From an uncultured bacterium (GTDB lineage Bacteria; Latescibacterota; MWCZ01; CAZVGZ01): 64,000 nt of DNA. How positions within the stretch are numbered: position 1 is the first letter of the stretch; each line of letters begins with the position of its first letter. The notes beneath the pieces were generated by a model, which searched no databases, had not been told where the DNA came from, and saw only the letters and a list, made by a program, of their open reading frames with translations. Both the position numbers and the translations under genes were made by a program. This document shows positions 7,555-58,057 of the stretch, piece after piece. The DNA lies in contig CAZVGZ010000001.1 of NCBI GenBank assembly GCA_964627605.1, positions 47,325-111,324 on the forward strand, written 5' to 3'.

Positions 7555-7629
7555 TACTGGGACCGATGCGGTTGGTGTGAGAACGATTGACCGCCCTGGA
7601 CATCGCTGTGTCGATCGACCATCGGAGGT

Positions 7630-8238: not shown

Positions 8239-8250
8239 TGCTGCCCCTCA

Positions 8251-11576: not shown

Positions 11577-11621
11577 ACACCAACCTGCTCACTGACAGAT
11601 ATTGCGAGGCTATTAAACACC

Positions 11622-32223: not shown

Positions 32224-33765
32224 TTACCCGTGATGGCGGGCCACGACCTCAGATGCGTTGGCAAAAGGTTTTTTTAGTGCCGGGTATAGTTCGCGAAACA
32301 GCCCATACCCGTCATCGTAAGCGTTTCTTACAGCCGGATTCGGCTCGGCCGTGGTTACAACCGAAACAAACTCGTCTGCCGCTTCGGCCAAGTCGTCAAA
32401 AACACCACCAGCGACACCACCCATGAGCGCCGCTCCCATCGCCGGTCCCTCTCCGCTGTTCACGGTCACAACAGGGGCATTGTAGATATCGGCCTGCATC
32501 TGGAGCCAGAAATCGCTCTTGGCTCCTCCTCCGGTGCACCTGATCTGATCTATGGGGATCCCCAAATCGCGGATGATCTCCATGGAGTCGTGCAGCGCGT
32601 AGGTGATTCCTTCAAACGTCGCCCGGATTAGATGTGACCTGCCGTGGCGTAGAGTCAGTCCCACATATGCTCCCTTGGCCGAAGCGTCCTTATGGGGGGT
32701 CCTTTCACCAGCCAAGTAAGGCAGAAAACTCAGACCCTCACTTCCCGCTGCCACATCGCCAGCGCGATCTGCCAGAACGTCGTAAGGGTCCTGGCCAACG
32801 GTTGCCACAGCGGCCCTCTCGCCGTCGGCTACCACATCTCTAAACCATCTCAGCGATCCCCCGGCGCTCAGGACCACGCCCATCAGATACCACTGATCAG
32901 GAACGCTGTGGCAAAACGTGTGAACTCTCATATCGGGGTCAACCGCCACACTGGTCGTCGGGGCGAACACAACGCCTGACGTTCCCAGGCTGGAAAGAAC
33001 CCGCCCTGGTGTCACCACGCCGCAACCTGTCGCGCCGCAAGTGTTGTCAGCGCCACCTCCGGCGACCACCGTCCCAGCTTTGAGCCCCGTCGCTGTTGCT
33101 GCCTTTTTGGTTATCTGTCCGCAATCGTCCACCGATTCTCTGACCTGAGGCAAAATGGATGGATCGACACCTATTTTTGAGAGCAGTTCGTCGGACCACC
33201 TGCGCTGGATAACGTCGAACATCGCAGTGCCCGCCGCGTCGGAGACCTCCATCAGTTTTTCGCCGGTCAGCTGAAAACGGATATAGTCTTTCGCCAGCAG
33301 GAGTGTCTTTAGTTTGGCGTACTCCTCGGGTTCTTCATCTCTTAGCCAGATCACTTTGGGGACAGTGAAACCTTCGAGCGCCGGGTTGGCGACCATATCC
33401 CTCAAAGCGTTTTTACCACCTGCGGCGTCGGTTATCCACTCGCGTTGGGCGGTCGTCCTGCCGTCGCACCATAGGAGTGCCGGGCGGATCACTTCGTCGG
33501 CTTCGTCAAGGAACACGCTGCTATGCATCTGCCCAGATAGCCCAACGCCGGCGATATCTTCAGCGCTCACCCCTTCAGCCAAAACGGCCTGAATCGTTTC
33601 GACTGTAGCATCCCACCAGTGGGCAGGCTCCTGCTCGGCCCAACCAGGGTGCGGTGTCGACATCGGGTACTCAGACGTGTGCGCGGCGACAGTCCGGCCA
33701 TTTTGATCTATAAGCAGCGCTTTCGTGCCGGTCGTTCCAATGTCCAGCCCGAGCAGATATGCCAT
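32224..33765 (-). CDS. FGGY-family carbohydrate kinase (second xylulokinase-like paralog)
   Basis: 513 aa starting MAYLLGLDIGTTGTKALLIDQNG. Same FGGY motifs as the 6055-7554 gene (GLSGQMHSSVFLD; C-terminal TGGGAKSDFWLQMQADIYNAPV). Confidence 0.8.
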   Translation of the reverse strand: MAYLLGLDIGTTGTKALLIDQNGRTVAAHTSEYPMSTPHPGWAEQEPAHWWDATVETIQAVLAEGVSAEDIAGVGLSGQMHSSVFLDEADEVIRPALLWCDGRTTAQREWITDAAGGKNALRDMVANPALEGFTVPKVIWLRDEEPEEYAKLKTLLLAKDYIRFQLTGEKLMEVSDAAGTAMFDVIQRRWSDELLSKIGVDPSILPQVRESVDDCGQITKKAATATGLKAGTVVAGGGADNTCGATGCGVVTPGRVLSSLGTSGVVFAPTTSVAVDPDMRVHTFCHSVPDQWYLMGVVLSAGGSLRWFRDVVADGERAAVATVGQDPYDVLADRAGDVAAGSEGLSFLPYLAGERTPHKDASAKGAYVGLTLRHGRSHLIRATFEGITYALHDSMEIIRDLGIPIDQIRCTGGGAKSDFWLQMQADIYNAPVVTVNSGEGPAMGAALMGGVAGGVFDDLAEAADEFVSVVTTAEPNPAVRNAYDDGYGLFRELYPALKKPFANASEVVARHHG

Positions 33766-34126: not shown

Positions 34127-35794
34127 ATGTTGTCGGACTTGGACATTGCACAGCAAGCAACGCTCGCACCTGTAGAAGAGTGCGCCTCGAAACTCAACCT
34201 TGGCGTTGATGATCTGGAGTTTTACGGCCCATACAAAGCCAAGATATCTCAGCAGACAGTCGCCCGTGCGCAGTCGAACCCCACTGGCAAACTTGTCTTG
34301 GTCACCGCCATGAACCCGACCCCAGCCGGTGAGGGCAAAACGACTGTCGCCATCGGTCTGGCGCAAGCGCTGGACCATCTCGACAAAAAGACCGTCGTGG
34401 CTCTAAGGGAGCCGTCACTTGGGCCGGTTTTTGGCCGTAAAGGCGGCGCGACTGGTGGTGGTTACTCCCAGGTGCTGCCCATGGAGGACATCAATCTTCA
34501 TTTCACCGGCGACCTTCACGCCGTCACCGCCGCGCAAGATCTGTTGGTGTCGATGTTGGACAACCATCTTCATCACGGAAACGATCTGGGTATAGACTCG
34601 AGGACGGTCACACTCAAACGAGCGATGGACATCAACGACCGTGCGCTTAGAAACATCAAGGTTGGTTTGGGTGGTACCGCGAACGGCGTGCCCCGCGAGA
34701 CCGGCTTTGAGATCACCGCAGCGTCAGAAGTCATGGCGTGTGTCGCACTTGCAAGAGACATCTCTGACCTCAAGGAGCGACTCAGCAGGATCAGGGTCGC
34801 ATACACCACATCGGGTCGCCCTGTCGCCGCAAAAGACCTGGATGCCACCGGCGGGATGGCTGCGCTGCTCAAAGATGCTGTCAAACCCAACATCGTTCAG
34901 ACGATTGAGGGCACTCCAGCGTTGGTGCATATGGGGCCGTTCGGGAATGTGTCCACCGGCTGCAACAGCATTATCGCCACCAAACTTGGGATGCGGCTGG
35001 CTGACTATACCGTCACAGAGGCGGGCTTTGGCTCGGATCTAGGTGGGCAGAAGTTTATGGACATCATCTGCCGTGCTGGCAACTTTATGCCTGACGCTAT
35101 TGTGCTCGCCGCAACGGTCCGAGCGCTCAAGATGCACGGTGGCTGTGCCCAGCAGAAGCTTCATATCACCGAATGTGATCGCGTAGAACAGGGATTGCCA
35201 AACCTTCTTCAACACATCGACCACGTTAGTCAGTATGGCATCCCGGTGGTGGTAGCCATCAACCGTTTTACCAACGATAGCGACGAGGAGTTGGAGATCA
35301 TTCGAAAGGCTTGCGCCGAGATGGGCAAGCCGGTCGCTGAGGCGACTATCTGGGCTGACGGCGGCAAGGGCGGCGTCGAGCTGGCGAATGAGGTCCTCGC
35401 AGTCTGCGACCAGCCCTCGGAAGGCAAATATCTTTACAACATCGATCTACCGCTGCGCGAGAAGATAGAAACGATCTGTAAGAGAGTCTACGGTGCTGAC
35501 GGTGCCAATTTCTCAGCCAAGGCCGCAAAGAAGATCGACGCGGTGGAAGCTGAGGGGCTTGGTCGGATGCCGGTCTGCATCGCAAAGACGCAGGATTCGC
35601 TTTCCGACAAAAAGACTCTTCTCGGGCGACCAAAAGGGTTTACTGTACAGATAGCGGATGTTCGTGCTGCGACAGGGGCTGGCTATCTGATCGCGTATGC
35701 AGGCAGCATTATGACTATGTTCGGCTTTAGCAAAAGTCCTGCTGCCGTCAAAATAGATCTGAACGACGACGGCGAGATTGTAGGGCTGTTCTAG
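34127..35794 (+). CDS. fhs: Formate--tetrahydrofolate ligase
   Basis: ATG at 34127 preceded by an aaggaa SD. Product MLSDLDIAQQATLAPVEECASKLNLGVDDLEFYGPYKAKIS… with the P-loop TPAGEGKTT. Full-length FTHFS of about 555 aa. Confidence 0.9.
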   Translation: MLSDLDIAQQATLAPVEECASKLNLGVDDLEFYGPYKAKISQQTVARAQSNPTGKLVLVTAMNPTPAGEGKTTVAIGLAQALDHLDKKTVVALREPSLGPVFGRKGGATGGGYSQVLPMEDINLHFTGDLHAVTAAQDLLVSMLDNHLHHGNDLGIDSRTVTLKRAMDINDRALRNIKVGLGGTANGVPRETGFEITAASEVMACVALARDISDLKERLSRIRVAYTTSGRPVAAKDLDATGGMAALLKDAVKPNIVQTIEGTPALVHMGPFGNVSTGCNSIIATKLGMRLADYTVTEAGFGSDLGGQKFMDIICRAGNFMPDAIVLAATVRALKMHGGCAQQKLHITECDRVEQGLPNLLQHIDHVSQYGIPVVVAINRFTNDSDEELEIIRKACAEMGKPVAEATIWADGGKGGVELANEVLAVCDQPSEGKYLYNIDLPLREKIETICKRVYGADGANFSAKAAKKIDAVEAEGLGRMPVCIAKTQDSLSDKKTLLGRPKGFTVQIADVRAATGAGYLIAYAGSIMTMFGFSKSPAAVKIDLNDDGEIVGLF

Positions 35795-35930
35795 GGCACC
35801 CCTACCGATCAACGTCAGGGACGGATATACTTCGTCCTTCTTTACAGCACTGGCCTCACTCTCTAGTGGATTTTAGGCCATATCACTGTTATGGGGCATC
35901 ACGCCCCGTTCTTCATCTGGAGCGAAAAAC

Positions 35931-37073
35931 ATGTCAATGACCGACAGGGAGCGATTCAACGCCTGTATGCATTTTGAATCTGTGGATCACGTCCCTGACG
36001 AAGAGTTCGGCTACTGGGAAGAGGTGTTCCCGATCTGGCACGAGCAGGGCTTGCCAGAGTGGGTAACCGACAACGGCAAAGCCGATCAGTATTTCGGGTT
36101 CGCCACGAAAGGCGGGCTGCCGGGGAATATCGGCATCATGCCGGGATACAAGACGCGGGTGATCGAAGAGGATGATCGACGCATCTTGCTCGAAGACGGT
36201 GACGGAGCACTCAAAGAGGTAGCCAAAGACGGACACTCGACCATCCCGCGCTATCTCAGATTTCCCATCGAGACCAAGGACGACTGGAAGCGGTTTCGGG
36301 ACGAGCGGTTTGATTCTTCAAATCCCGATCGTCGCGACATCGATTGGGATTCTGTCATCAAACAGCATGAGGGGCACGACTATCCTCTGGGCCTCAACTG
36401 CGGAAGCCTGTTCGGATGGATACGCAACTGGATGGGTTTTGAAAATGTGAGCATCGCCTGCGTAGAAGACCCGGACTGGATAGAGGAGATGATGGACGCC
36501 ATCACCGACATGGTGCTGACGATGCTAGACGACACGATCTCCCACGCAGGTCACCTTGGCCTCGATTACGCCAGTTTTTGGGAGGATATGGCCTTCAACC
36601 ACGGCCCGATCATCTCCCCGGCGATGTTTGAGAGGTGGCTTACACCTCGCTACAAGAAGATTACGGACAGACTAAGGGAAGCTGGTGTCGATGTTTGCAT
36701 CGTTGACTGCGACGGGAACATCAATGTCGTAGTCGAACACTGGCTGGCTGGCGGGGTCAATGTCATGTTTCCGCTGGAAATCAGAGGTGGAACCGATCCT
36801 GTGACCATTCGTGAGAAATACGGCCACGATGTTCTCTTGGCTGGTGGAGTGGACAAGACTCAGCTCATTGAAGGCAAAGAGGCGATCCGTAAAGAGCTAA
36901 ACCGCATTGAGAGCACCATTGCCGACGGTGGATTCATCCCCCATGTCGATCACAGATGCCCACCGGACGTGACATACGACGACTACCTCTACTACGTAAA
37001 AACCAAGCGCGAGATGTTGGGCATTCCAGAGCCAGTCTCTTACGAAGATCGGAAAGCAGCGGGGTTGGTTTGA
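35931..37073 (+). CDS. UroD/MtaA-CmuA family methyltransferase-like protein, paralog 2
   Basis: 380 aa. The N-terminus MSMTDRERFNACMHFESVDHVPDEEFGYW is paralogous to the 1066-2169, 37165-38139 and 62050-63162 genes. Confidence 0.7.
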   Translation: MSMTDRERFNACMHFESVDHVPDEEFGYWEEVFPIWHEQGLPEWVTDNGKADQYFGFATKGGLPGNIGIMPGYKTRVIEEDDRRILLEDGDGALKEVAKDGHSTIPRYLRFPIETKDDWKRFRDERFDSSNPDRRDIDWDSVIKQHEGHDYPLGLNCGSLFGWIRNWMGFENVSIACVEDPDWIEEMMDAITDMVLTMLDDTISHAGHLGLDYASFWEDMAFNHGPIISPAMFERWLTPRYKKITDRLREAGVDVCIVDCDGNINVVVEHWLAGGVNVMFPLEIRGGTDPVTIREKYGHDVLLAGGVDKTQLIEGKEAIRKELNRIESTIADGGFIPHVDHRCPPDVTYDDYLYYVKTKREMLGIPEPVSYEDRKAAGLV

Positions 37074-37164
37074 GAGACAGTCGCTACTTGCCGAAACTGG
37101 GTTCCCTCGGCTGGAACAGTGGAGCCCAGCCAGGCTTTCCGCACAGTTTGACAGGTGAGATATC

Positions 37165-38139
37165 GTGACCAGCCGCGAGCGGTTCCTAAGGACACTATCC
37201 TACAGAGATGTGGATCGCCCACCCCTGTTCGACGACGGACTACGCGAAGATGTCTTGGAGCGCTGGAGCAATGAAGGGCTCCCTCAGGGCACCGATCTCG
37301 ACAGCCTTTTCGCCATCGACCGAAGGGAGGAGATTCAGCCAAACCTCCATCCTGCCAAATCTTTCTCCCCGCTATCCGAACCAGGGCAGCTAGATCGTTT
37401 TGAGGAGTTTTTTGTCTCTGACGGTCGTCAGCCTGAAGATTGGTCCCAGCGGGTCGAAGAGTTAAACGATCGCTCATGGACAGCAGGTCTGGTTGTTTGG
37501 CGAGGGTTGCTTCAGATGTTGGGGATCGGCGACTGGACGACTCTGGTTGATGTCCTCACCGGCATAAAAACCCAACCAGAGGTGGCTGAGTGCGCTCTGG
37601 GCAAGATAACCGATGTCATACTGGAGACTATCGAGCCGATGCTCCGGCAGGTGAGATTCGACTACGTCGTGTTCAGCGAGCCGATAGCAGGCAGCGATGG
37701 GACGGTGGTTAGTCCAGAGATGTATCGCCACTTCTGTGTTCACCATTGTCGTCGGCTTTCAGAGCTCGCCAAAAGGTGTGGTGTCTCGGTGATCGTTTTC
37801 AGGTCGTGGGGACGGTCTACGTCGCTACTGCCAGCGGCGATGGATGCCGGGATGAACGCTTTTTGGTGCGGTGAGACGGGTTTGGCCGGGGTGGACTACT
37901 CCCGGCTCAGGAGGCAGCACGGTCGCCGACTCAGGCTTATCGGCGGCGTGGATGTGCACTCTTTGGTTGAGAGCGAGAAGAAAACGGGCAGAGCTTTGGG
38001 CGATCTATTGCCGGAACTGTTGGCGGATGGCGGTTACATCCCGCTGGCCGACGGTAGAATTCGCGCCGAGGTGGGTTTCTCTGCCTACAGCCACTATAGG
38101 CAGCAACTCGAAAAGCTGTGCAACGCCGGAAAGAAGTAG
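37165..38139 (+). CDS. UroD/MtaA-CmuA family methyltransferase-like protein, paralog 3
   Basis: 324 aa starting MTSRERFLRTLSYRDVDRPPLFDD. Its stop lies 9 nt before the PTPS-like gene start. Confidence 0.7.
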   Translation: MTSRERFLRTLSYRDVDRPPLFDDGLREDVLERWSNEGLPQGTDLDSLFAIDRREEIQPNLHPAKSFSPLSEPGQLDRFEEFFVSDGRQPEDWSQRVEELNDRSWTAGLVVWRGLLQMLGIGDWTTLVDVLTGIKTQPEVAECALGKITDVILETIEPMLRQVRFDYVVFSEPIAGSDGTVVSPEMYRHFCVHHCRRLSELAKRCGVSVIVFRSWGRSTSLLPAAMDAGMNAFWCGETGLAGVDYSRLRRQHGRRLRLIGGVDVHSLVESEKKTGRALGDLLPELLADGGYIPLADGRIRAEVGFSAYSHYRQQLEKLCNAGKK

Positions 38140-38148
38140 TGAGGCGTA

Positions 38149-38562
38149 ATGCCAACCACCATCACCAAAAGTTTTCGCTTTGAGGCGGCGCACCGTCTGT
38201 ATGATCCGACTCTAAGCGACGACGAAAACACAGAGCTTTACGGCCCCTGTGCGCGGCTGCATGGTCATAGTTATGAGGTCCGGGTGACAGTCGGCTCCAA
38301 CGAGCTGCAACACGGCATGGTCATCGACTTCACTCATGTATCGGCGCTGGTAAATGAAGAGATCATAGGGAAATTCGATCATCAGGTCCTGAGCGATTTG
38401 CCGATACTCTCTGGTATTATTACGACCGCCGAGGAATTGGCGTCGTGGATATGGGACCAGCTAGCTCAAAAGTTCGACGATCGTGGTGTATTTTTGCGTA
38501 GAGTCGAAGTGTGTGAAACCGTCGATGCCTGGGCTACAGTGACAGCAATTACGGAACATTAG
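38149..38562 (+). CDS. 6-pyruvoyl-tetrahydropterin synthase / QueD-family protein
   Basis: 137 aa with the CxxxHGH zinc/catalytic motif (CARLHGHSYEV) and a PTPS-fold layout. The SD gagg lies 6 nt upstream; the gene is coupled to the preceding methyltransferase. Confidence 0.8.
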   Translation: MPTTITKSFRFEAAHRLYDPTLSDDENTELYGPCARLHGHSYEVRVTVGSNELQHGMVIDFTHVSALVNEEIIGKFDHQVLSDLPILSGIITTAEELASWIWDQLAQKFDDRGVFLRRVEVCETVDAWATVTAITEH

Positions 38563-38621
38563 GCACAGAAGGCGTCTAAGGTGTTGGCGTACTGCTGAGG
38601 GTGGGCGTACGCTTGACGTAT

Positions 38622-38641
38622 GGGTATTTGTTATTCGAAAG
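38622..38641. promoter_or_regulatory. AT-rich imperfect palindrome TTGTTA-ttcgaaag-TAACAA upstream of the corrinoid protein gene
   Basis: 6-bp inverted arms flanking a TTCGAA core, in an otherwise GC-rich spacer about 90 bp upstream of the 38729 ATG. Confidence 0.35.
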
Positions 38642-38728
38642 TAACAATGTTCGTGCCCAGGCCGGATTGTGGAGGTTTCCCGCTGGCTGGAAGGGCGTAA
38701 GCGCGCGCACGGCAAGGAGGTAACTCGC

Positions 38729-39367
38729 ATGGCCGATTATCAGGCGATTGCGGATGAAATCATCGTAGGCAACCGAACAAAAGTAGTTGAACTGGTAGAC
38801 GCCGCACTCGACGAAGGGGCGCCGGCCAAAGATATCTTGGATCATGGCATGATCACGGGAATGTCCGTGGTCGGCGAGAAGTTCAAGAACTGCGAGTTTT
38901 ATGTCCCCGAAGTGTTGGTGGCCGCCCGTGCGATGCACGCAGCGCTCGACGTACTTCGACCGCTACTCGCCGACTCCGATGTCCAGCCCGAAGGCACAGT
39001 GGCCATCGCCACCGTCAGAGGCGATCTCCATGACATTGGCAAAAACCTTGTGGCGATGATGCTTGAAGGCGCTGGCTTTGAGGTCGTTGACCTTGGTGTC
39101 GATGTCTCGCCTGAAGGTTTTGTCAATGCGGTCAAGGAGCAGGGCATTAACGCGATCTGCCTCTCGGCGCTTTTGACAACGACTATGCCCGCTATGCAGG
39201 ATACAGTGACTGCACTCGAAGCCGCTGGAATACGCGACACTGTCGCCGTGGTTATCGGCGGTGCTCCAGTGACGCAGAAATATGCCGACCAGATCGGTGC
39301 CGATGGCTACGCCGCCGATGCCGCCAGCGCAGTGGACGTAGTCAGAGAGGTCATGGTTAAGGCCTAA
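38729..39367 (+). CDS. Cobalamin-binding corrinoid protein of a methyltransferase system (MtaC/MtbC/MttC-like)
   Basis: ATG at 38729 with an aaggagg SD. N-terminal helical B12-binding-2 domain, then a Rossmann B12-binding domain with the DxHxxG motif (GDLHDIGKN) and …LSALLTTTMP…GGAP…. Confidence 0.85.
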   Translation: MADYQAIADEIIVGNRTKVVELVDAALDEGAPAKDILDHGMITGMSVVGEKFKNCEFYVPEVLVAARAMHAALDVLRPLLADSDVQPEGTVAIATVRGDLHDIGKNLVAMMLEGAGFEVVDLGVDVSPEGFVNAVKEQGINAICLSALLTTTMPAMQDTVTALEAAGIRDTVAVVIGGAPVTQKYADQIGADGYAADAASAVDVVREVMVKA

Positions 39368-39483
39368 CTCCACTTGAGCCAAATGGTCGCTGATTCCATC
39401 GATGAATGGGGTGCTCTCCAAAAAGGGGTGGCATCCCATTTCTCTTTGCTGTCGGTGGGTCCGCAGCGAAACCTGAGAGGGAG

Positions 39484-40539
39484 ATGAAAATGAGTGAGAC
39501 GGAGTACACGGTACATCCTCATTTAAGAAGTCGATGGGATGCGGTGGGGCGAAAGTTGAGATTTATCGCCACCACTAAAGGTGAATGGGAGACATGGCGA
39601 GAGGCGACTAGCGCGAAGCTTAAGGAACTGACCGGCTACAACACGATGGTCGGCAGTGAGTTGCAGCCCAAAATCACCGATGAAGTGGTATTCGACGACT
39701 ACATCCGTCAGCGTGTTGAGATAAACACAGAACCCGATGTGGTAATGACGCTCTATGTCATGATTCCAACCACGGGCACCCCGCCATTCCCAGCCGTCTT
39801 GGCCCCCCACGGCCACGGCAGCGGAGGGAAGTACTCCGTCGCAGGGATAACCGATCACGGCGACGACATCGCAAACGCCGTCAAACACTACAACTACGAC
39901 TACGGAATCCAATTCGCCCGTGCTGGTTTTATCACTTTCTGCCCAGACGCCCGAGGGTTCGGAGAGCGGCAGGAGGAGGGTGCTAAAAACAGCATTCTCA
40001 ACTCATCATGTCAGCTGATAAACAACATGGCGCTTCCATTGGGACAGACGGTAACGGGCATGTGGGCGTGGGACCTGCATCGACTGATCGACTATGTAGA
40101 GATGCGTGACGACGCCAGGTCGGAGGGCGTCGGGTGCGGCGGTCTATCCGGGGGAGGGCTCCAGACGCTATGGGCGTCAGCACTTGATGAGCGGATTACG
40201 TGCTCGGTCGTCAGTGGTTATATGTACGGCTATCGCGAGTCGCTTCTGGACCTTCACGGCAACTGCTCATGCAACTATGTGCCTCATCTCTATGAATACG
40301 TTGACATGGGCGACATCGCCGCTCTGATCGCCCCGAGACCGCTCCTTGTGGAGACAGGCGACCAGGACCCGCTCAATGGTGCCAGCGGAGTCGCCAACAC
40401 CGAATCGCAAGTAGACATCGCCTGTCGCGCCTTCCGCCTCTTGGGCACAGAGGATTCACTATCACACGACATATTTGAAGGCGAACACCGCTGGAATGGC
40501 GTTGAGGCGATCCCGTGGATGGTCAAACATCTTCAGTAG
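39484..40539 (+). CDS. Alpha/beta-hydrolase fold esterase (acetyl-xylan-esterase/dienelactone-hydrolase-like)
   Basis: ATG at 39484 (MKMSETEY) with a gagggag SD. Nucleophile elbow GLSGGG (GxSxG). About 350 aa. Confidence 0.65.
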   Translation: MKMSETEYTVHPHLRSRWDAVGRKLRFIATTKGEWETWREATSAKLKELTGYNTMVGSELQPKITDEVVFDDYIRQRVEINTEPDVVMTLYVMIPTTGTPPFPAVLAPHGHGSGGKYSVAGITDHGDDIANAVKHYNYDYGIQFARAGFITFCPDARGFGERQEEGAKNSILNSSCQLINNMALPLGQTVTGMWAWDLHRLIDYVEMRDDARSEGVGCGGLSGGGLQTLWASALDERITCSVVSGYMYGYRESLLDLHGNCSCNYVPHLYEYVDMGDIAALIAPRPLLVETGDQDPLNGASGVANTESQVDIACRAFRLLGTEDSLSHDIFEGEHRWNGVEAIPWMVKHLQ

Positions 40540-40743
40540 GTGACAGATTGATCGCTTACATAAGATCGCTTGTGTGCCAGTTGGAACCCCATCAACCGCA
40601 GAACACTAGTCGAAGGGCTCGATGGGTTAGGCGGCCACCTCTACCTCGGAATTACGAGAGGTCGCCGCTGCATAGTCGGCTGCAGGCTGGACATGAGGCA
40701 CATCAACCACTAGCTTTTGGTCGATCGATTTATAAAGAAAGCC

Positions 40744-42492
40744 ATGCCGGGAAACCAGAGCGCTATGTCAAACGAAGGGTCAGCTATCAGCAGCATAGAA
40801 TCCCCTCATATAGATCGTGCGAGCATCCCTACGGAAAGCTCATCTTCGGCTGCCACAAGGGTTCTGTTTGTCTACCCGCCAGTGCGTCTAAATCAGCCTC
40901 CCAGGTTTCCGCCGTTTGGGATGATGTATCTCGGCGCTGCGCTCGAAGAGGCCGGGATACATGTGGAGTTGATAGACATCAACCTGCTGCGAGTGCCGTT
41001 TGAAGAGGTGATGGCGATCATCGAAAGTCGCCAGTTCGACGTGATCGGCATCGGTGGCATGACGACTGTCTACTACTATATAAAGGCGCTCTCGCTACAT
41101 CTGAAAAAACGTTTCCCAAATATACCCATTATGGGCGGCGGGAGCGCTGTGTCCGCTTCTCCCGATCTGGTTTTGACAAATACCGGTATTGATGTGGCGT
41201 GTATAGGGGAAGGCGAGCCGATAATTGTTCAACTCGTTCGCCACCTTTCAGAAGGCCAAGACCTCGACGACATTCCAGGAATCGCCTATCGACTTGCTGA
41301 CGGATCGATCCGCCACACCGCTCCGCGACCTCGCTTTCTTGATATCGACAGTCTACCCTTTCCGGCCTACCATCTTGTGGACCTGGAACCCTATATCAGC
41401 AACAACATTAAAGTGAACGGGCGAAGCCCACAGATCCAAGCGCGTGTAGAGCAGCTGGGGATCGACCCAGTGAAAGCAAGCAGGCCGATACCACTCTTCA
41501 GCAAACGAGGCTGCCCTTTCGGGTGCAACTTCTGCTACCGCAATTTCGGGAGGAAGACAGCCCAGGCGTCGGTCGATTCCGTGCTCGACCACATGAGCAT
41601 GTTGGAGGAGAACTACAACACGGTGTTCTTCGTCTTTTCTGATGAGATATTCAACGTCAGCAAGCGATGGGTGACGGAATTTTGCGAGCGGATAATAGCT
41701 GAAGACCGCAAATACATCCTCGCTACCAATAACGCCATGCGTGCGAATACGGTCGACAGAGAGATGTTGGTGATAATGAAAAAGGCCGGATTTTGCCAGA
41801 TAGCGATCGGAGTCGAATCTTTCTACGATCCTACCCTCAAAGCCATGGAAAAGAACCAGACGGCTGAGACGGTGGCAAACGCCCTTCGATTGGCGCGCGA
41901 GTGCGACATGTTTACAAATGGGGCACAGCTCCTGTTCGGGTACGAAACCGACGGACGCGAGTCGATGGAAGCCAACGTCAAAGCGCTGACAGAGTTGGGA
42001 TTCTCGTCGGTTGGGTTCGCAATCCCATGCCCCTACCCGGGCACAGCCCTGTACGATATAGCCCAAAAGCGCGGTCTGCTCGGAGACGAAGAGGGGTGGT
42101 TGCTTGAGCTGGCGGATCGGGACATCTCAGACCGGATGGTGAACCTCTCTAAAATGTCCGATGGTGAGATCCTTCGGCACATCGAGTGGGGAAACGATCA
42201 GCTGGAGATCAACCTGATCCGCAAGAAGCACCCCATCGTAGCATGGATTTTGGACTACCTTCAACCTGCGCTAAGGAGGCTTGGCGGTCTAAACGTCACC
42301 GCCCTCTGGACTCAGGTGTGGTCCATTTTGCGTTACCAGCGGCGGCTTGTAAGGCCCGAAAGCGTCTATTTTGACACAGGCCACGACCGTACAGCGCTTC
42401 GCGATGAGGTATTCGACCTCCTTGAGGAGTTGGACAGGGAGAAAAACGAGACTCAGTCACAAGAAGTGCGTCGGTTGGAACCGCTCACCTAG
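40744..42492 (+). CDS. B12-binding domain-containing radical SAM protein
   Basis: N-terminal B12-binding Rossmann region (RVLFVYPP…FGMMYLGAALEEAGIHVELIDIN…DVIGIGGMTT), then a radical SAM motif CPFGCNFC (CxxxCxxC) and elp3-type core. The start codon is uncertain; 40717 and 40765 are alternatives. Confidence 0.8.
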   Translation: MPGNQSAMSNEGSAISSIESPHIDRASIPTESSSSAATRVLFVYPPVRLNQPPRFPPFGMMYLGAALEEAGIHVELIDINLLRVPFEEVMAIIESRQFDVIGIGGMTTVYYYIKALSLHLKKRFPNIPIMGGGSAVSASPDLVLTNTGIDVACIGEGEPIIVQLVRHLSEGQDLDDIPGIAYRLADGSIRHTAPRPRFLDIDSLPFPAYHLVDLEPYISNNIKVNGRSPQIQARVEQLGIDPVKASRPIPLFSKRGCPFGCNFCYRNFGRKTAQASVDSVLDHMSMLEENYNTVFFVFSDEIFNVSKRWVTEFCERIIAEDRKYILATNNAMRANTVDREMLVIMKKAGFCQIAIGVESFYDPTLKAMEKNQTAETVANALRLARECDMFTNGAQLLFGYETDGRESMEANVKALTELGFSSVGFAIPCPYPGTALYDIAQKRGLLGDEEGWLLELADRDISDRMVNLSKMSDGEILRHIEWGNDQLEINLIRKKHPIVAWILDYLQPALRRLGGLNVTALWTQVWSILRYQRRLVRPESVYFDTGHDRTALRDEVFDLLEELDREKNETQSQEVRRLEPLT

Positions 42493-43119: not shown

Positions 43120-43995
43120 CTAACCCCGCAACCCCAACTCCTTGAGAATCACCAACCAGTTGTCAAGGCAGAGGCGCGTGGCGAATTCGCCGGATTCGGA
43201 GAAAGCAGCGCCGCCAGGGCGGTTGAGCTGGTCCTCAGAGAGCGATTGAGGCCGCCAGTGGGTCTCTAGGGAGACATAACCCTCGTAGCCGTCGTGGATC
43301 AGCGCTTGGAGTTGACCAGGCATGTCCACCGCGCCATCGCCGATGGGGGTGCACTCCGGTTCGCCGGTTTCGGCGTTTAGATGGGCGTCTTTGAGGTGCA
43401 TGTGCGGCATTCGGTCCTTAATCGCCTCGTAGCCGTCAGGATAGGGTATCTCTCCAGCAGTGTCGAAAATGTCATTGGCTGGGTCCCACATTGCGCCTAC
43501 GCGGTCGCTGTCGAGGTCTGACAAGAACCGGGCCAACACCCGGCCGTTGCCAACCATAGTGCTGGCTTCGTTTTCAATCGCCAGCGTCTTGTTATAGCGC
43601 TCCAAGATTTCCAATGGCTCATCAAATGCCGACAGAATCTCGCCCCACCGGTCGTCAGGGTTGCCTTTGAGCCAAAAGGTGAATCCGCGTATGATGTCGC
43701 AGTCGAAAACATCGGCCAGCTTGCAGCAGCTCTCAAGAATTGCGAGATGTTCGGCACGCTCGGCTGGGGAATCTATGTCGCACTTGTAGAACGGTGCCGC
43801 GATGCTGCATATCGCCAGCTTGGAGCCTTTGAGCATCTCCCGCATGTCGCGGATATCACGGTTTTCCAACTCGTGCGGCGGCTTGTCCCACGCCGAGCGC
43901 ACCTCCAACCCGTCTAACCCATACTCCTGAGCCAACTCCACCGCTGCACCAAAATCTTGCGAAACCTCGTCGGTGAATACACCCAATTTGAACAT
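43120..43995 (-). CDS. Sugar phosphate isomerase/epimerase (xylose isomerase-like TIM barrel), second paralog
   Basis: Start at the ATG at 43995 (MFKLGVFTDEVSQDFGAAVELAQEYGLDGLEV) with an aggag SD. Carries …LAIENE… and …HLKD… motifs. Confidence 0.75.
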   Translation of the reverse strand: MFKLGVFTDEVSQDFGAAVELAQEYGLDGLEVRSAWDKPPHELENRDIRDMREMLKGSKLAICSIAAPFYKCDIDSPAERAEHLAILESCCKLADVFDCDIIRGFTFWLKGNPDDRWGEILSAFDEPLEILERYNKTLAIENEASTMVGNGRVLARFLSDLDSDRVGAMWDPANDIFDTAGEIPYPDGYEAIKDRMPHMHLKDAHLNAETGEPECTPIGDGAVDMPGQLQALIHDGYEGYVSLETHWRPQSLSEDQLNRPGGAAFSESGEFATRLCLDNWLVILKELGLRG

Positions 43996-44153
43996 GAAAC
44001 AACTCCTGCGTGTGATGGGGAACACATACATGAAATTGTACGGGCGCGAAGGTTAGACTAGCAAGTCGAAGCTTCCTTGACCCGCCGCTGGGTTTTGGAT
44101 ACACTACGTCACGTAAATCCAAAGAGGCTCCCATCGGCTGTTATCCGGGTCCA

Positions 44154-46862
44154 TTGATGCTTGACGAGTCGTTCGCAACCGCCCTGTCGCACCTACCTGT
44201 GGCGGTGCTGACTGATCCCGCCGAATGTTTGGTCTACTCAGGCGACGCCTCCCTCTGTCAGGGGCTTCCCGCCGCAGTCATTCTGCCTGAAAACCTCGAA
44301 GAGATCTCCGCCGCGATGAAACTGGCGGCTGAGCATGGCGTCTGCATTGTCCCCCGTGGCGCTGGCACCGGCTTGGTTGGTGGCGCGGCACCGAGCGATC
44401 AGGACGTTATAATCGCCCTCAATCGAATGCGCTCAATTGATGACAGCCACATTGCTGATGGGTTGCTCTTGGCCTCCCCTGGCGCAACCGTTCAGGAGTT
44501 GGAGACCACAGCAGCGCAGAGCATGTGGCATTACGCACCGGACCCAGGCAGCGGACAGACTTGTACCGTTGGCGGCACGGTCTCTACTAACGCCGGTGGC
44601 CCCCACGCCTGGACGGGCTATTCGACTAGGGATGCGGTTTCCCAGATCACGATGGTGTTGGCGGACGGCAGCAGTACGAGGCTCGGCGGCCTGACGAGCG
44701 AATGGCCGGGAGTCGATCTTGCGGGGTTGGTGTCAGGGAGTGAGGGCACTCTGGGAATCATCGCAGGTGCTGCCTTGCGGTTGTCGAGGCCGCAGCAGGC
44801 GTGTGCAGGGCTCGTGGCAGTTTTTGATGAGCTAGTGGACGCGGTAAGTGCAGGAGTGGCGCTGAGCGGCGACGGCGTGGATATCGATGCGATCGAAGTG
44901 GTGGACGCGCTCTTGGTAGACACGGTCAACCCTGAGAGGCGAGGGCTTCCTTCATCTGGTAGTCACGCTGTACTGCTCGCTCAAGTGTGCGGCAGCAGTG
45001 ATAGCCTCACTGGTGCCCTTGACCGCATTGCGCTTCTCTGTGGGCGTGAAGGAGCGCTCAATATGGGCAGGCACACCGGGGAAGACGGTGGGCGTCAGAT
45101 GTGGGATGGTTGGCGTAAGACGATAGGATCGGTCGGTCGGCTGGCCGCGCCCACAAGGTGGGTGGGTTTGGCGACGAAACCGAGCAAGCTCGTGGAGACT
45201 ATAGAGGGGTTGCAGAAGCTGGCGCGCGATCATCAGCGGGAGGTGGGTTGGCTCATCCACGCTGGCGACGGAGGGATTCAGGCCGCAGTGCCTACGACAC
45301 TTGATGCGGCCAGCGCCGACCCCTTTGTGGAGCAGATGTGGCGCCTATGCAGTTCGTTTGGCGGCGTTCCCACCGGTGAGCACGGGGTTGGCAGGCTCAA
45401 TAAGGCTGCGCCAGCCATTGTGCTTTCAGAAGCAACCTTCGAAGCAAAGCGGGGAATAAAGCGGATTTTTGATGACCGGGTGTGCCTAAATCGTGGTACT
45501 TGGCCTCCAGAGCGGGCCGACCGGCGGGTTGATAGGTCTGACGAGGCGGTTGAGTACCGCACGGTGGTACACCTCACTGAGTTGATTAGCTCGGTCGCGG
45601 CGTCCAGCGAGGCAACCGCAGTAAAGCCGAATTCAGCGAAGGAGGTCGCCAGAACGCTGAGAGCCGCAGCATCCGACGGCGTTTCACTCGCTGTGCATGG
45701 TACCCCGAGCGACCGCGTGGTGGACATACAGTTAGATCGACTCTCAGAGATCGGCCCATGGAACCCAGAAGATCGTGCGATAACTGTGGGGCCTGGCGTC
45801 AAAGTTTGTGACCTTGATAAACTCGTCAGGTCGCTGGGTTGGAGGTGGCCTGTAGATCCTCCAGCTGTGATGGGGGAAACCGTTGGGCAGGCCCTGGCGT
45901 ACAGGCGCACCGGCCCGCAGAAACTTGGTTGGGGTGACATACGTGAGCATGTTTTGGGTGTTGAGCTCGCAACCACGCGCGGCGACCTGATCCGATGTGG
46001 TGGCCCAACGATACGCCACAGGGCTGGCTATGACCTGAGAGCGCTCGCTGTGGGAGCACGCCACAGTTTGGGCGTAATTACCGAAGCGACACTGCGATTG
46101 AGGCCACGGCCAGATGCCCAAGGGGCGCTAATCGCTGTGTTCGACACGGTGGATGGTTGTGGGCTCGCAGCCAAGACGTGGCTGAAGTTGGGTGGAGGCA
46201 CCGCTTCTTTGCACCCGACAGCGGTTGTGGTGATGTCGGTCTCAGGTGAACTCACACTTGACAGAGATTGGCAGATGGTGCTTGATGCCGACCGATATAC
46301 CGCAGTCGTGGGGTTTGAAGGTACTGAGGAGTCTGTCAAAACTCAGCTAAACTCCGCCGCCGCTGTGGGGCGAACATTCGAAATGACAGACCAGGTGCTC
46401 CTTAAGGAGAGTCGTGCCGACAATGTGTGGACCGCGATATCGATGATGCGCGGGACCGAAGGTGTCGATTGGCGTACGAATACGCGGGCGCGGTTCCATA
46501 TACCGACCTCCCTCGGCGTCTGGCTCTTGGAAGTTCTCCAGAATCGGCTGCCTGACAACAGCGAGGCCGAGATTGTCGGGGATGTCGGTTGCGGAGTCGT
46601 CGAGCTGGTTATAGGTCATGACGACGACGGCTGGTTGGCGGGTTGGCTCTACGATCAGGGCGAACTGGTGGTTGAGGATGGTGGCTGGTTGGAAGTTGTA
46701 GATGGCCCCTATTTAGGAACTGTAATCGCCGACGAAGACCCTGTAGCTACGCGTTTGGCATGTGACCTCAAAAGTGAGATGGACCCATCGGGTACTCTTC
46801 CTGAATGGAAACACACCGCCCCCAGTCTGCCTGCTTCTGACAGCTCTTCAGACACCGAATGA
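44154..46862 (+). CDS. FAD-linked oxidase with two tandem FAD-binding (PCMH-type) halves (GlcD/GlcE-like fusion)
   Basis: 902 aa. The N-terminal half has the FAD-binding domain (VCIVPRGAGTGLVGGAAP…). The second half repeats a FAD-binding domain (SLAVHGTPSDRVVDIQLD…). A BBE/GlcD-like cap follows each half. Confidence 0.7.
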   Translation: MMLDESFATALSHLPVAVLTDPAECLVYSGDASLCQGLPAAVILPENLEEISAAMKLAAEHGVCIVPRGAGTGLVGGAAPSDQDVIIALNRMRSIDDSHIADGLLLASPGATVQELETTAAQSMWHYAPDPGSGQTCTVGGTVSTNAGGPHAWTGYSTRDAVSQITMVLADGSSTRLGGLTSEWPGVDLAGLVSGSEGTLGIIAGAALRLSRPQQACAGLVAVFDELVDAVSAGVALSGDGVDIDAIEVVDALLVDTVNPERRGLPSSGSHAVLLAQVCGSSDSLTGALDRIALLCGREGALNMGRHTGEDGGRQMWDGWRKTIGSVGRLAAPTRWVGLATKPSKLVETIEGLQKLARDHQREVGWLIHAGDGGIQAAVPTTLDAASADPFVEQMWRLCSSFGGVPTGEHGVGRLNKAAPAIVLSEATFEAKRGIKRIFDDRVCLNRGTWPPERADRRVDRSDEAVEYRTVVHLTELISSVAASSEATAVKPNSAKEVARTLRAAASDGVSLAVHGTPSDRVVDIQLDRLSEIGPWNPEDRAITVGPGVKVCDLDKLVRSLGWRWPVDPPAVMGETVGQALAYRRTGPQKLGWGDIREHVLGVELATTRGDLIRCGGPTIRHRAGYDLRALAVGARHSLGVITEATLRLRPRPDAQGALIAVFDTVDGCGLAAKTWLKLGGGTASLHPTAVVVMSVSGELTLDRDWQMVLDADRYTAVVGFEGTEESVKTQLNSAAAVGRTFEMTDQVLLKESRADNVWTAISMMRGTEGVDWRTNTRARFHIPTSLGVWLLEVLQNRLPDNSEAEIVGDVGCGVVELVIGHDDDGWLAGWLYDQGELVVEDGGWLEVVDGPYLGTVIADEDPVATRLACDLKSEMDPSGTLPEWKHTAPSLPASDSSSDTE

Positions 46863-47299
46863 ATCACGACACTATGGAATCCAATCGACCAGATTATGGC
46901 CAGCAGTTTGGGCCTCTAACCGCAGAAGTCAGGCTTGAGCCTCTAGGTCCGGGCAAACCGAACGAAAAGGCCGCCGAGGTCTTTGGGAGAATCAGCGTCA
47001 AAACGGCGTTTGATGGAGTAGCGGTGGCCGACAATGCGATGGCGCAGGCGGGTGTTTGGCTCTACCACGGCTATCTCGATGAATCCCATCGGCTATGCCA
47101 GAGTATTGACACCCCCACTGGAAGCTACTGGTACGGTATCATGCACCGCCGCGAGCCGGATGCATCCAACGCCGCCTACTGGTTTGGCCGGGTAGGGGAT
47201 CACCAAATATTCGGCGCACTCACGACGAGCTCCGCATCTTTAGCAGCAGAGATGGGCACCGACGACGAACCAAATTTTCTTCGAGATCAGGTCCATTGA
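46859..47299 (+). CDS. Hypothetical protein, translationally coupled to the FAD oxidase
   Basis: 146 aa. Its ATG overlaps the oxidase stop (ATGA at 46859-46862). No recognised motifs and no Cys cluster. Confidence 0.45.
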   Translation: MNHDTMESNRPDYGQQFGPLTAEVRLEPLGPGKPNEKAAEVFGRISVKTAFDGVAVADNAMAQAGVWLYHGYLDESHRLCQSIDTPTGSYWYGIMHRREPDASNAAYWFGRVGDHQIFGALTTSSASLAAEMGTDDEPNFLRDQVH

Positions 47300-55793: not shown

Positions 55794-56567
55794 TCACTCC
55801 GGCGTCACGTACGCCGCTGTGATCCCCCCATCGGCTGTAAATGTCGCACCGGTGACATAGCTGGATTCGTCGGATGCCAGGAACAGCGCCGCTTTAGCCA
55901 TCTCCGAGGCTTCACCGAACCGACCCATGGGCACATGGACCAGCCGCCGCTGCTTCTTCTCTTCGGTGTCGAGGAACGCCATCAGAAGCTCTGTCTTGAG
56001 CGGGCCTGGGCAGAGGGCGTTGACGCGGATGTTTTCGCGGGCATGTATCACCGCAAGTTCGCGGCTCATGGCAAGCACGCCGCCCTTGCTGGTGGTATAG
56101 GCCAACTGTGGTGTCGCCGCTCCTACAATAGCAACGAACGACGCGGTGTTGACGATAGAACCGCCTCCTGCCCGGCGAATAGCTGGTATCCCATATTTAC
56201 ACCCTAAATAGACACCCTTGAGGTTGACGCTCATAGTCAGATCCCAAACGTCTTCCTCAGTCGCTTGCGAGTCGCCATCATCGCCGTGCATGATGCCAGC
56301 GTTGTTTAACAGCACCGACAGCGATCCGAACCTTTTTTCGGCGACATCCACCATCTTCTCGCATTCGTCGGCCTTAGAGACATCCGCATGCGCGAAAACA
56401 GCACTACCACCCTGGCTCTCAACGAGCTCGACCGTCTCCTCTCCTGCGTCATCGTTCACATCTACCACCACCACCCGCGCTCCCTCTCTCGAAAAAAGCA
56501 GCGCTGACTCCCGCCCGATACCGCTGCCTGCGCCGGTAATGAGAGCCACTCTCTCCTCTAACCGCAT
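55794..56567 (-). CDS. Short-chain dehydrogenase/reductase (SDR)
   Basis: 257 aa. TGAGSGIGR cofactor motif, NNAG, and catalytic YTTSK (YxxxK). Confidence 0.85.
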   Translation of the reverse strand: MRLEERVALITGAGSGIGRESALLFSREGARVVVVDVNDDAGEETVELVESQGGSAVFAHADVSKADECEKMVDVAEKRFGSLSVLLNNAGIMHGDDGDSQATEEDVWDLTMSVNLKGVYLGCKYGIPAIRRAGGGSIVNTASFVAIVGAATPQLAYTTSKGGVLAMSRELAVIHARENIRVNALCPGPLKTELLMAFLDTEEKKQRRLVHVPMGRFGEASEMAKAALFLASDESSYVTGATFTADGGITAAYVTPE

Positions 56568-57307
56568 TACGATGCCTCCTGCGAAATGCCCCTGAATTCA
56601 ACCGCTGCCCTTGCGAGTCCATCGAACAGCCTTTGCTGGGCCGGGTCGTCAGCCGCCGTCAACTCTGGATGCCACTGAACCGCCAGAAACCAGCTTTGAC
56701 CAGGCATCTCAAACCCCTCAATCATCCCATCCGCCGCACGGGCCACCACCTCAAGCCCTGGTGCAGTGTTCTTCAAAGCCTGATGGTGCCACGATTGAGA
56801 TGTCGTTTCCGTGCATCCCATGACTCGCGCCAGCATCGAACCAGGCTCAATCGACATCGGATGAGGAGTCGGCTCTCTCGGCGGCAATCGATGCGCAACC
56901 TGCGTGCCAAATTTTTCGGGCAGATGCTCGAAAAGGTCTCCCCCCAGCGCGACATTCACTACCTGCGCCCCTCGGCAGATCGCCAAAATCGGCATGTCTA
57001 TTTCGAGCGCTTTCAAAGCTAGCTTGAATTCCAGATCATCCCGTTCAGTGTCCACCATGTAGGTTCTTTCATGCCCAACACCACCGAACCGTTGTGGCTC
57101 AATATCCCCGCCACCTACCAGCACCAATCCGTCGATGGGCCCCAGCATCTCGTCGGAATACTCTCCGCACGACGGCAGAACCACCGGCAGCGCGCCTGAT
57201 CTTCGCACCGAATCGACATACTCCGATGGAAGCGTCAAGACATTTTTTCTATCACGACCGTACGTGGTTATTCCGATCACTGGCGATCTTTTTCCCATTC
57301 TATTCAT
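56567..57307 (-). CDS. Class I glutamine amidotransferase-like / peptidase C26 (gamma-glutamyl-GABA hydrolase PuuD-like)
   Basis: 246 aa. The IGIT N-terminus, the catalytic Cys motif AICRGAQ, and the WHPE His region. Confidence 0.75.
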   Translation of the reverse strand: MNRMGKRSPVIGITTYGRDRKNVLTLPSEYVDSVRRSGALPVVLPSCGEYSDEMLGPIDGLVLVGGGDIEPQRFGGVGHERTYMVDTERDDLEFKLALKALEIDMPILAICRGAQVVNVALGGDLFEHLPEKFGTQVAHRLPPREPTPHPMSIEPGSMLARVMGCTETTSQSWHHQALKNTAPGLEVVARAADGMIEGFEMPGQSWFLAVQWHPELTAADDPAQQRLFDGLARAAVEFRGISQEAS

Positions 57308-57619: not shown

Positions 57620-58057
57620 ATGGAGACACTAAGAGCTCAGGCCTACTTTCACGCGGCGCATCGGCAGATCGGATACCCAGGCAAATGCCGACACGTCCAC
57701 GGCCACACCTGGCGCGGCGTGATTGTCGTCAGCGCAGAGAGGCTCCCACGCAACGATCTGGACATGGCGGTAGATTTCGGCGACCTCAAAGACATCCTGC
57801 GGTCGCTCGACCATAAGATGATGGTCTCTCAGACCGATTCAGTGTTTCTGGATGAATCGCTGTTCGACCAGGATGGCGTGGTACTGATTCCAGGCAACGG
57901 CCCGTCGGTGGAAAATATCTCCAACTACGTCTATGACAGAGTCGCCGACGTGATCAGACGGCAATACCCCGATCTTGGCATATCCTACCACATCTTTGTG
58001 GAGATTCAGGAGACGGACAACAACTTCATGGTAGTTGAAGGCGACGCGGTTATCTAG
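57620..58057 (+). CDS. 6-pyruvoyl-tetrahydropterin synthase / QueD-family protein, second paralog
   Basis: 145 aa with the CxxxHGH motif (CRHVHGHTW). Its stop lies 8 nt before the MBL-hydrolase start. Confidence 0.75.
   Translation: METLRAQAYFHAAHRQIGYPGKCRHVHGHTWRGVIVVSAERLPRNDLDMAVDFGDLKDILRSLDHKMMVSQTDSVFLDESLFDQDGVVLIPGNGPSVENISNYVYDRVADVIRRQYPDLGISYHIFVEIQETDNNFMVVEGDAVI

Follow-up and report, generated by a model that had tools for sequence, protein, structure and literature searches.

The described systems closest to the locus considered here are the bacterial three-component corrinoid methyltransferase systems, namely the aromatic O-demethylases MtvABC, Odm and Vdm and the chloromethane system CdmBCA, in which a substrate:corrinoid methyltransferase (MT I) of the UroD superfamily is encoded beside a small corrinoid protein (CP) with B12-binding_2 and B12-binding domains, a pterin-binding methyltransferase (MT II) delivers the methyl group to tetrahydrofolate (THF), and an ATP-dependent RACE-type activator may be encoded elsewhere (PMC13222342). 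The MT I of these systems lack the His-Cys-Cys zinc site and are scattered as many paralogs over each genome; in acetogens such paralogs share a CP, an MT II and an activator, and in Acetobacterium dehalogenans the activator gene lies apart from the cdmBCA genes (PMC13222342). None of the MT II enzymes in that account is UroD-like; all, those of the MtqA type included, are of the pterin-binding TIM type (PMC13222342). A second point of comparison is the type 1 mlp cluster, which combines several UroD-like genes with a CP gene and has no H4folate methyltransferase gene in the cluster, likewise in anaerobes; the Mlp proteins are about 30% identical to MtaA/MtbA, probably keep the His-Cys-Cys ligands, have a zinc site read as fitting methyl-sulfur or methyl-selenide substrates, and are always accompanied by a RACE gene (PMC10418091). 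Here we describe a related locus on the forward strand (34127-42492) of a 64-kb stretch of DNA, hereafter the window, from a Candidatus Latescibacterota genome rich in glycan-degrading genes. It is best read as resting on a functional unit of four genes rather than seven, namely two UroD-superfamily genes (UroD-A and UroD-B), a COG0720 paralog of the 6-pyruvoyl-tetrahydropterin synthase fold (PTPS) and a CP. We favour, with some reserve, the reading that this unit is an O-demethylase-type MT I/CP module that feeds folate one-carbon (C1) metabolism, its MT II and activator being encoded elsewhere. Literature searches on PTPS with corrinoid proteins, on corrinoids with methylated sugars and on corrinoids in Latescibacteria returned no published account of such a module.

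The gene that ties the locus to these systems is that of the CP (38729-39367, +), whose ATG is preceded at 7 nt by AAGGAGG. Its product carries a B12-binding_2 domain (PF02607, 65.7 bits) and a B12-binding domain (PF02310, 98 bits), with the DxHxxG motif present as GDLHDIGKN. The MtaC, MtbC and MtgC models of NCBIfam score it at 121-218 bits, the best being MtgC_2 at 218 bits, below its cut-off. To judge by these domains it is a small, MtaC/MtgC-like, standard methyltransferase-cognate corrinoid protein and the predicted methyl carrier of the locus. With the UroD families linked to it, the CP bears out the original prediction, made from the sequence of the window, that a corrinoid-dependent methyl-transfer module is present.

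Gene order around this CP was compared across 80 metagenomic loci encoding CPs 50-72% identical to that of the window. The closest (L023) has, in order, a UroD-B-like gene (38% identity), PTPS (44%), CP (72%), MTHFR_C, MTHFR and Pterin_bind. Another of them, L028, has a UroD-A-like gene (54%), RACo and CP (62%). Searches anchored on UroD-B and PTPS added two arrangements. In L107 the order is PTPS (50%), CP (72%), MTHFR_C, MTHFR and Pterin_bind, with no UroD gene, and in L103-105 it is GFO/IDH/MocA, UroD-B (37%), PTPS (45%), a 398-aa UroD with an H-x-C dyad, and CP (72%), successive genes overlapping by 4 nt. The 72%-identical CP homologs of L023, L103 and L107 share a PTPS neighbour, and what is conserved is PTPS and CP, usually together with UroD-B, surrounded by folate-branch genes or further UroD paralogs. 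Alignment of three PTPS-CP intergenic regions revealed no conserved element, and Rfam at the gathering threshold gave no matches across the entire window and none for L023, L103 or L107, and hence no cobalamin, THF or preQ1 riboswitch. Directly after the CP of L028 lies a 372-aa ORF (10655-11773) without Pfam or PDB match, which could be an unrecognised component.

UroD-A (35931-37073, +; Pfam URO-D 46.6 bits) and UroD-B (37165-38139, +; 34.9 bits) are clearly related to one another (hhalign E 4.5e-60, 24% identity), UroD-A having an extra beta-rich insertion relative to UroD-B. Both model as UroD-type TIM barrels (pLDDT 89-90.5, with UroD-A at 90.5) whose folds are closest to MtaA and HemE; a Foldseek search with the UroD-A model returned MtaA (4ay7, E 9e-13) as best match, then HemE, with MetE and the homocysteine domain of MetH more distant. 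In sequence, the two lie far from every protein that has been solved or named. A PDB sequence search with UroD-A as a single sequence returned nothing, and with its family profile only HemE (E 0.007). Against the NCBIfam models TIGR01463, NF004889 and NF040654 the best scores of UroD-A and UroD-B are 32.9 and 25.7 bits (cut-offs 235-400). The HemE equivalog TIGR01464 gives UroD-A 21.5 bits (cut-off 303) and does not match UroD-B; an RQAGR-type motif, which we take to be characteristic of HemE, was not seen by eye in either N-terminus, a region inspected without a HemE alignment. The MtaA/CmuA family label that had been attached to these proteins is weak, at 33 and 26 bits against NCBIfam cut-offs of 235-244.

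The residues at the putative active sites were located by mapping the MtaA zinc ligands through alignment with an MtaA (4ay7) fragment. The H-x-C dyad of MtaA (L-H-I-C-G-N) is replaced by V-D-C-D-G-N in UroD-A and by F-R-S-W-G-R in UroD-B, and the segment holding the third ligand (APGC) by PHVDH and PLADG, respectively, so that the His-x-Cys...Cys zinc site of the MtaA/MtbA/CmuA type is absent from both. In UroD-A, D259, D261, D340, H341, E218 and D219 are invariant in 120/120 homologs. The UroD-B family has seven invariant Arg and, among 120 homologs, no column with at least 80% His or Cys. S-methyltransferases of the UroD superfamily use His-Cys-Cys, and O-methyltransferases swap the Cys for carboxylates or non-coordinating residues (PMC10418091); CdmB, a UroD-fold MT I, is described as a scaffold in which no metal takes part in catalysis (PMC13222342). 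The invariant carboxylate/His site of UroD-A (D-C-D and H-x-D-H) fits the pattern reported for O-demethylase-type enzymes, and UroD-A is predicted to be a substrate:corrinoid methyltransferase of this kind. UroD-B is predicted to be a scaffold-type MT I or the partner subunit of a metal-bearing paralog. Both genes lie upstream of the CP gene, and homologs of the two are CP-linked in L023, L028 and L103. It had been proposed beforehand that these proteins be examined for decarboxylase catalytic residues, as opposed to the MtaA zinc site; neither was found, and the pattern is O-demethylase-like instead. A thiol acceptor as in MtaA systems, also suggested earlier, is disfavoured because neither UroD family keeps the His-Cys-Cys site. 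From the mlp clusters the locus differs in resembling MtaA only marginally (26-33 bits), in having Asp-x-Asp (UroD-A) or nothing (UroD-B) in place of the zinc ligands, and in the absence of a RACE gene. The methanogen MtaABC and MtbA systems share its CP family, and MtaA is the closest solved fold to UroD-A; the locus, however, has no MT I of the MtaB, MttB, MtbB or MtmB type and no thiol-activating zinc site, and is bacterial and folate-linked.

In four of seven independent loci, UroD-B adjoins a UroD paralog with a potential metal dyad, which is D-x-D in the window, H-x-C in L103 (6330-8934) and H-x-H in L100 (5588-7665) and L102 (8001-10060); the paired genes are 2 nt apart in L100 and overlap by 4 nt in L102 and L103. 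HemE is dimeric. Solved UroD-fold enzymes are commonly dimers, CdmB among them (PMC13222342), so that an MT I composed of one active and one degenerate subunit is a reasonable expectation, and the pairing could, by this analogy, reflect a heteromeric enzyme. The pairing is also what an MT I/MT II pair would display, and it is possible to imagine, in keeping with the core of the original prediction, a self-contained, non-canonical pathway in which UroD-B and PTPS replace MT II and methylate a non-folate tetrahydropterin formed in situ (a 6-carboxy- or 6-pyruvoyl-tetrahydropterin derivative), with UroD-A as MT I. Such a scheme would agree with the close coupling of the UroD-B and PTPS genes (9 nt apart in the window, a 4-nt overlap in L103), with the metal-free, Arg-rich character of UroD-B, which suits an anionic or pterin ligand, with the lack of a Pterin_bind gene in the window, and with the dedication of the PTPS clade to CP loci. 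However, L023 pairs UroD-B and PTPS with a normal Pterin_bind MT II and an MTHFR and offers no other MT I candidate, so that UroD-B is there most simply the MT I. Further, L107 has PTPS, CP, MTHFR and Pterin_bind and no UroD-B, and PTPS therefore tracks the CP and folate genes and not UroD-B; the pterin-binding TIM type of the named MT II enzymes also speaks against a UroD-like MT II. We consider this scheme improbable. A non-folate pterin acceptor is conceivable, but nothing in the data demands one; a direct role of PTPS with UroD-B is conceivable as well.

The PTPS gene (38149-38562, +; PF01242, 126 bits) encodes a single T-fold domain of about 140 aa. Among COG0720 proteins, CxxxHGH is the signature of PTPS-I/QueD, CxxxxxHGH that of type II and ExxHGH that of the folate-related type III (PMC5041015). 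The window protein has CxxxHGH, as GPCARLHGH, and neither of the other signatures: its spacing differs from that of type II, and three residues ahead of the first His stands Ala where type III has Glu. As in QueD/PTPS-I, the three Zn-binding His, the catalytic Cys, the Asp-His pair (D77-H78) and the Glu (E123) are retained; H15 is present as well. It departs from QueD in several respects: its score against the QueD equivalog TIGR03367 is 80.3 bits, below the cut-off of 89.25 (for a genuine QueD, that of Thermotoga, the score is 105.7); like animal PTPS it contains an LSDxEN insertion, and its best PDB match is human PTPS; it falls into a clade of its own; and its neighbours are not queC, queE or folE. 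Directly flanking it are UroD-B and CP, and among 47 scanned ORFs of the window, the PTPS neighbours included, no Pfam match to QueC, a QueE-type enzyme or FolE was found.

The clade emerged from a neighbour-joining tree of 164 COG0720 proteins, built without support values, whose input included the single-domain matches obtained when 1.84 billion representatives were searched exhaustively by HMMER with a profile made from 3 PTPS sequences. That search returned mostly tandem-domain PTPS proteins with no clean score break, and two of its single-domain representatives fell into the CP-linked clade. The clade, exclusive in the tree, has seven members, the four CP-linked PTPS together with P0260, P0404 and P0405; all of those with known neighbourhood (4/4) adjoin this CP clade. 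The PTPS-fold gene singled out in the original prediction is thus a real conserved partner of the CP. The window holds a second COG0720 paralog, 19 kb away (57620-58057, +; 145 aa; GKCRHVHGH; 62 bits to the QueD equivalog, below the cut-off), and two COG0720 paralogs in one genome usually differ in role (PMC5041015). A Peptidase_C26 gene (56567-57307) and an SDR gene (55794-56567) are oriented divergently from this second gene, and an ORF of the metallo-beta-lactamase fold comes after it.

These observations bear on a simpler possibility, that only the CP and perhaps one UroD cooperate, PTPS being an ordinary queuosine or pterin gene whose adjacency is inherited synteny without function. It would sit well with the complete set of catalytic residues and the QueD-type motif of the PTPS, with a score just under the equivalog cut-off, with the gaps of 122-225 nt between most genes of the locus, and with the fact that the CP of every PTPS-CP locus is 72% identical to that of the window, so that all may represent one lineage. 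The genes around PTPS-CP differ, however, being UroD-A in the window, MTHFR and MeTr in L023 and L107, and GFO/IDH/MocA with another UroD in L103; PTPS identity is just 44-50%, and GC content ranges from 56 to 64%. Taken together, the varied flanks, low PTPS identity and GC spread indicate that the PTPS-CP adjacency outlasted much rearrangement. In addition, the second COG0720 paralog leaves one of the two free for another role, and no CP adjoins P0265 (44%), the PTPS that comes next after the clade members. Inherited synteny without function is accordingly held to be unlikely. As the constant partners of the PTPS are the CP and, in L023 and L107, MTHFR and Pterin_bind, a role in the pterin part of the C1 carrier is favoured, and the PTPS is most likely a dedicated accessory of the corrinoid/folate hub that makes or salvages this part.

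No MT II or activator gene accompanies the module. Pfam detected neither Pterin_bind/MtrH nor RACo/DUF4445 in 47 likely genes chosen from the 69 ORFs of at least 150 aa in the window, and tblastn with RACo, Pterin_bind and MTHFR queries against its six frames returned nothing, so that the reported absence of MT II and RACE from the locus holds and extends to all 64 kb. This absence had suggested a non-canonical pathway, for which, by comparison with related loci, it is no evidence. Homologous modules carry Pterin_bind and MTHFR (L023 and L107) or RACo (L028), and half of the related CP loci flanked by 5 kb or more on each side (7/14) have neither RACo nor Pterin_bind within 6 kb, which makes a CP locus devoid of both a common arrangement. 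RACo adjoins the CP in L020-L022, L024-L026, L028, L033 and others; many close CPs adjoin RACo or Pterin_bind, and more distant ones adjoin MTTB, MtaB, S-methyl_trans or other URO-D genes. In the comparison with the O-demethylases and CdmBCA, the pterin-binding MT II that delivers the methyl group to THF is a shared feature seen here in the homologous loci L023 and L107, and the 64-kb span without MT II or activator is a difference.

The folate connection of the locus begins with its first gene, fhs (34127-35794, +), a formate--tetrahydrofolate ligase by Pfam (FTHFS, 811 bits) and by the NCBIfam equivalog (821 bits, cut-off 652), which lies 136 nt upstream of UroD-A. The Fhs protein bears the source label Candidatus Latescibacteria/Latescibacterota. 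In L057 and L085, too, fhs lies near a related CP gene, at a distance of 4-8 kb, and the link to folate C1 metabolism drawn in the original prediction is borne out, as fhs, MTHFR and Pterin_bind recur at related CP loci. The fhs gene is probably a functionally related C1 neighbour, serving methyl oxidation to formate and ATP or the reverse. The data permit the construction of a model in which UroD-A and UroD-B, alone or paired, would bind an O-methylated donor and offer it to the CP, which in its Co(I) state would take up the methyl group. A pterin-binding MT II from elsewhere in the genome may then move the methyl group to THF, giving methyl-H4folate, and MTHFR, FolD and finally the adjacent Fhs could oxidise it to formate with ATP gain. 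A RACE-type activator, likewise from elsewhere, would repair oxidised Co(II), and the PTPS paralog may supply or salvage the pterin moiety of the C1 carrier. In this model the esterase and B12-binding radical SAM genes at the end of the run would be neighbours and not components. Its observed basis consists of domain identities, folds, conserved residues and conserved gene order, from which the direction of methyl flow, the kind of substrate, the presence of MT II and activator elsewhere in the genome and the PTPS role are inferred.

These two genes had been proposed as parts of the pathway, and neither proved to be conserved with the module. The product of the alpha/beta hydrolase gene (39490-40539, +) matches Abhydrolase_7 at 53 bits, with the elbow GLSGGG, and GCE_fung at 42.7 bits across about 50 residues, and is related to carbohydrate esterases; its best PDB match is 3nuz, a 'putative acetyl xylan esterase' (E 1e-8). 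No homolog of it occurs in the roughly 100 related loci fetched, and it is probably outside the conserved module. Inspection of the N-terminus by eye, with no predictor, revealed no obvious signal peptide. An assignment to CE15, acting on 4-O-methylglucuronate esters, was considered and rejected, since the similarity to the CE15 enzyme OtCE15A (E 1e-5) is local, confined to residues 186-302 around the nucleophile elbow, the CE15 nucleophile motif, which we take to be GCSRxG, differs from GLSGGG, and conservation with the module is lacking. On another contig, a UroD-B homolog has an Abhydrolase_7 gene at a distance of about 7 kb.

The B12-binding radical SAM gene (40765-42492, +) encodes B12-binding and Radical_SAM domains with CxxxCxxC as CPFGCNFC; its best NCBIfam match is BchE at 177 bits (cut-off 481), and its best PDB match TsrM (6wte, 59 bits). 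Nine homologs of 38-60% identity (L011-L019) each stand alone among unrelated genes. Within 10 kb of them, none of the other six genes of the locus occurs, and no neighbour recurs from one homolog to the next. They come from metagenome-assembled genomes labelled Planctomycetota, Bacteriovoracaceae, Prolixibacteraceae (three), Bacteroidia, Bacteroidales and Desulfovibrio and from an Azospirillum isolate. The gene, whose product is a class B enzyme, is most simply an unrelated neighbour of the module. A QueE-like role, or one as a PTPS-tied pterin methylase, was ruled out, as the nine homologs have no PTPS neighbour.

The radical SAM gene also enters a model of opposite direction, in which formate would pass through methyl-THF to the CP and onward to an acceptor methylated by the UroD-like enzymes, with the esterase and the radical SAM enzyme tailoring the product of a seven-gene biosynthetic operon. 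Methyl transfer through corrinoids can run both ways, as can fhs, MTHFR and MeTr, which may operate reductively, and the same-strand radical SAM enzyme is of class B, a group linked mainly to methylation (PMC13142503). Yet neither the radical SAM gene nor the esterase gene is conserved with the module, in the nine radical SAM loci or in the PTPS/CP loci, and the UroD-A relatives examined lie in degradative sugar loci. To our knowledge, no physiological O-methylation through a corrinoid protein has been described for this family. A biosynthetic operon running in this direction thus seems very unlikely.

As to the substrate of the module, the UroD-A family comprises at least 2,431 protein clusters and the UroD-B family about 500; source labels, given for a minority of the homologs only, name Armatimonadota, Latescibacteria, Chloroflexota relatives, Acidobacteria and Deltaproteobacteria. 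UroD-A homologs are neighboured by two GH2 genes and a PfkB kinase gene in L004, by GH4 in L007, and by DUF4434 and a GH99-like gene in L006. The arrangement resembles that of acetogens, with their scattered MT I paralogs, and suggests, short of proof, that the substrates are O-methylated carbohydrates or related compounds. The window itself encodes GH2, sulfatase, GFO/IDH/MocA, esterase and sugar-kinase genes. A bolder conjunction may be proposed, in which UroD-B and PTPS constitute a new second methyltransferase step onto a tetrahydropterin made in situ and, at the same time, the scattered UroD-A paralogs are anaerobic O-demethylases of methyl sugars released by neighbouring glycoside hydrolases, and so would do without oxygen what P450 enzymes do in sugar demethylation (PMC6292453). 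We regard that conjunction as improbable.

Two further UroD-like genes occur in the window. One (1066-2169, -), 33% identical to UroD-A and with an L-D-T-D-G-N dyad, ends a run on the reverse strand (1066-9786) comprising an SSF transporter, DUF975, an FGGY kinase, a small ORF and GH2, a run that resembles an operon for sugar utilisation equipped with a candidate demethylase. The other (62050-63162, -) resembles MtaA more closely than do the remaining three (36 bits to 4ay7); its dyad is H-C-H rather than H-x-C, and a DUF6941 gene (61605-62069) adjoins it. In other genomes, UroD-B homologs adjoin genes for 5-formyl-THF cyclo-ligase and Amidohydro_2 (L009, 2867-4513, and the P0130 contig, two related contigs), and in L100 a QueF-like T-fold gene (7680-8078) is convergent to the UroD pair, which adds to the folate and T-fold genes near this family.

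Pfam and NCBIfam scans of the ORF calls place all seven forward-strand genes and their quoted motifs where they had been reported, start codons being set by Shine-Dalgarno sequences and by gene calls on identical public contigs. The gaps described as short are 136, 91, 9, 166, 122 and 225 nt from fhs to the radical SAM gene; that description holds in part only. The 9-nt spacer between UroD-B and PTPS is genuine, GAGG preceding the PTPS ATG. By gap size, then, only UroD-B and PTPS are tightly coupled. The run is bounded on the left by an FGGY kinase gene (32224-33765, -) and on the right by a xylose-isomerase-like TIM gene (43120-44031, -). Beyond the latter, a 902-aa protein (44154-47299, +) has two FAD_binding_4 regions and FAD-oxidase_C and is read as a fused GlcD/GlcE-like oxidase; a 146-aa ORF without family match overlaps the end of its gene.

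Several considerations weigh against the O-demethylase-type module that we favour. Over 33.7-43.2 kb, promoter and terminator counts are no higher than in shuffled sequence, and co-transcription is unsupported. The view of the host genome extends to 64 kb only, in which an MT II or an activator has not been demonstrated; in the related loci, detection of RACo and Pterin_bind relied on one tblastn query each, and the sampling of neighbourhoods, by searches anchored on four different genes, was small (12 exact look-ups and two collection scans). No CP lies near the UroD-A homolog in three of the five loci examined, and several UroD-B homologs are also solitary, so that some members of both families may work without a corrinoid. 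The motif of the PTPS is of the QueD type and not of the folate type (ExxHGH; PMC5041015). Finally, few neighbourhoods underlie the carbohydrate link, and the phyla concerned are full of such genes.

Viewed against the described systems, the locus works like the O-demethylase and chloromethane systems and resembles the type 1 mlp clusters, and by its defining features it stands outside the MtaA/Mlp, HemE, QueD-equivalog, CE15 and BchE families. The host sets it apart, being a Latescibacterota glycan degrader and not an acetogen or organohalide respirer, as do the relatives of its predicted MT I genes in glycoside-hydrolase and sugar-kinase loci and the PTPS paralog within the module. What is new is a putative MT I/CP module made of two uncharacterised UroD branches and a dedicated, rare PTPS paralog.

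If the ordinary side of this reading is the true one, the locus is one more incomplete MT I/CP cluster with its partners elsewhere. COG0720 is a textbook case of mis-annotated paralogs, and a dedicated PTPS would, if confirmed, be a new accessory of the corrinoid/folate hub and a further functional subgroup of that family. Two large uncharacterised UroD branches would likewise gain a testable role, as corrinoid-dependent O-demethylases. Removal of methyl ethers from sugars has so far been described only for oxygen-dependent P450 enzymes; if the present reading is true, the UroD-A members that lie beside glycoside hydrolases would point to how strict and facultative anaerobes strip methyl ethers from sugars.

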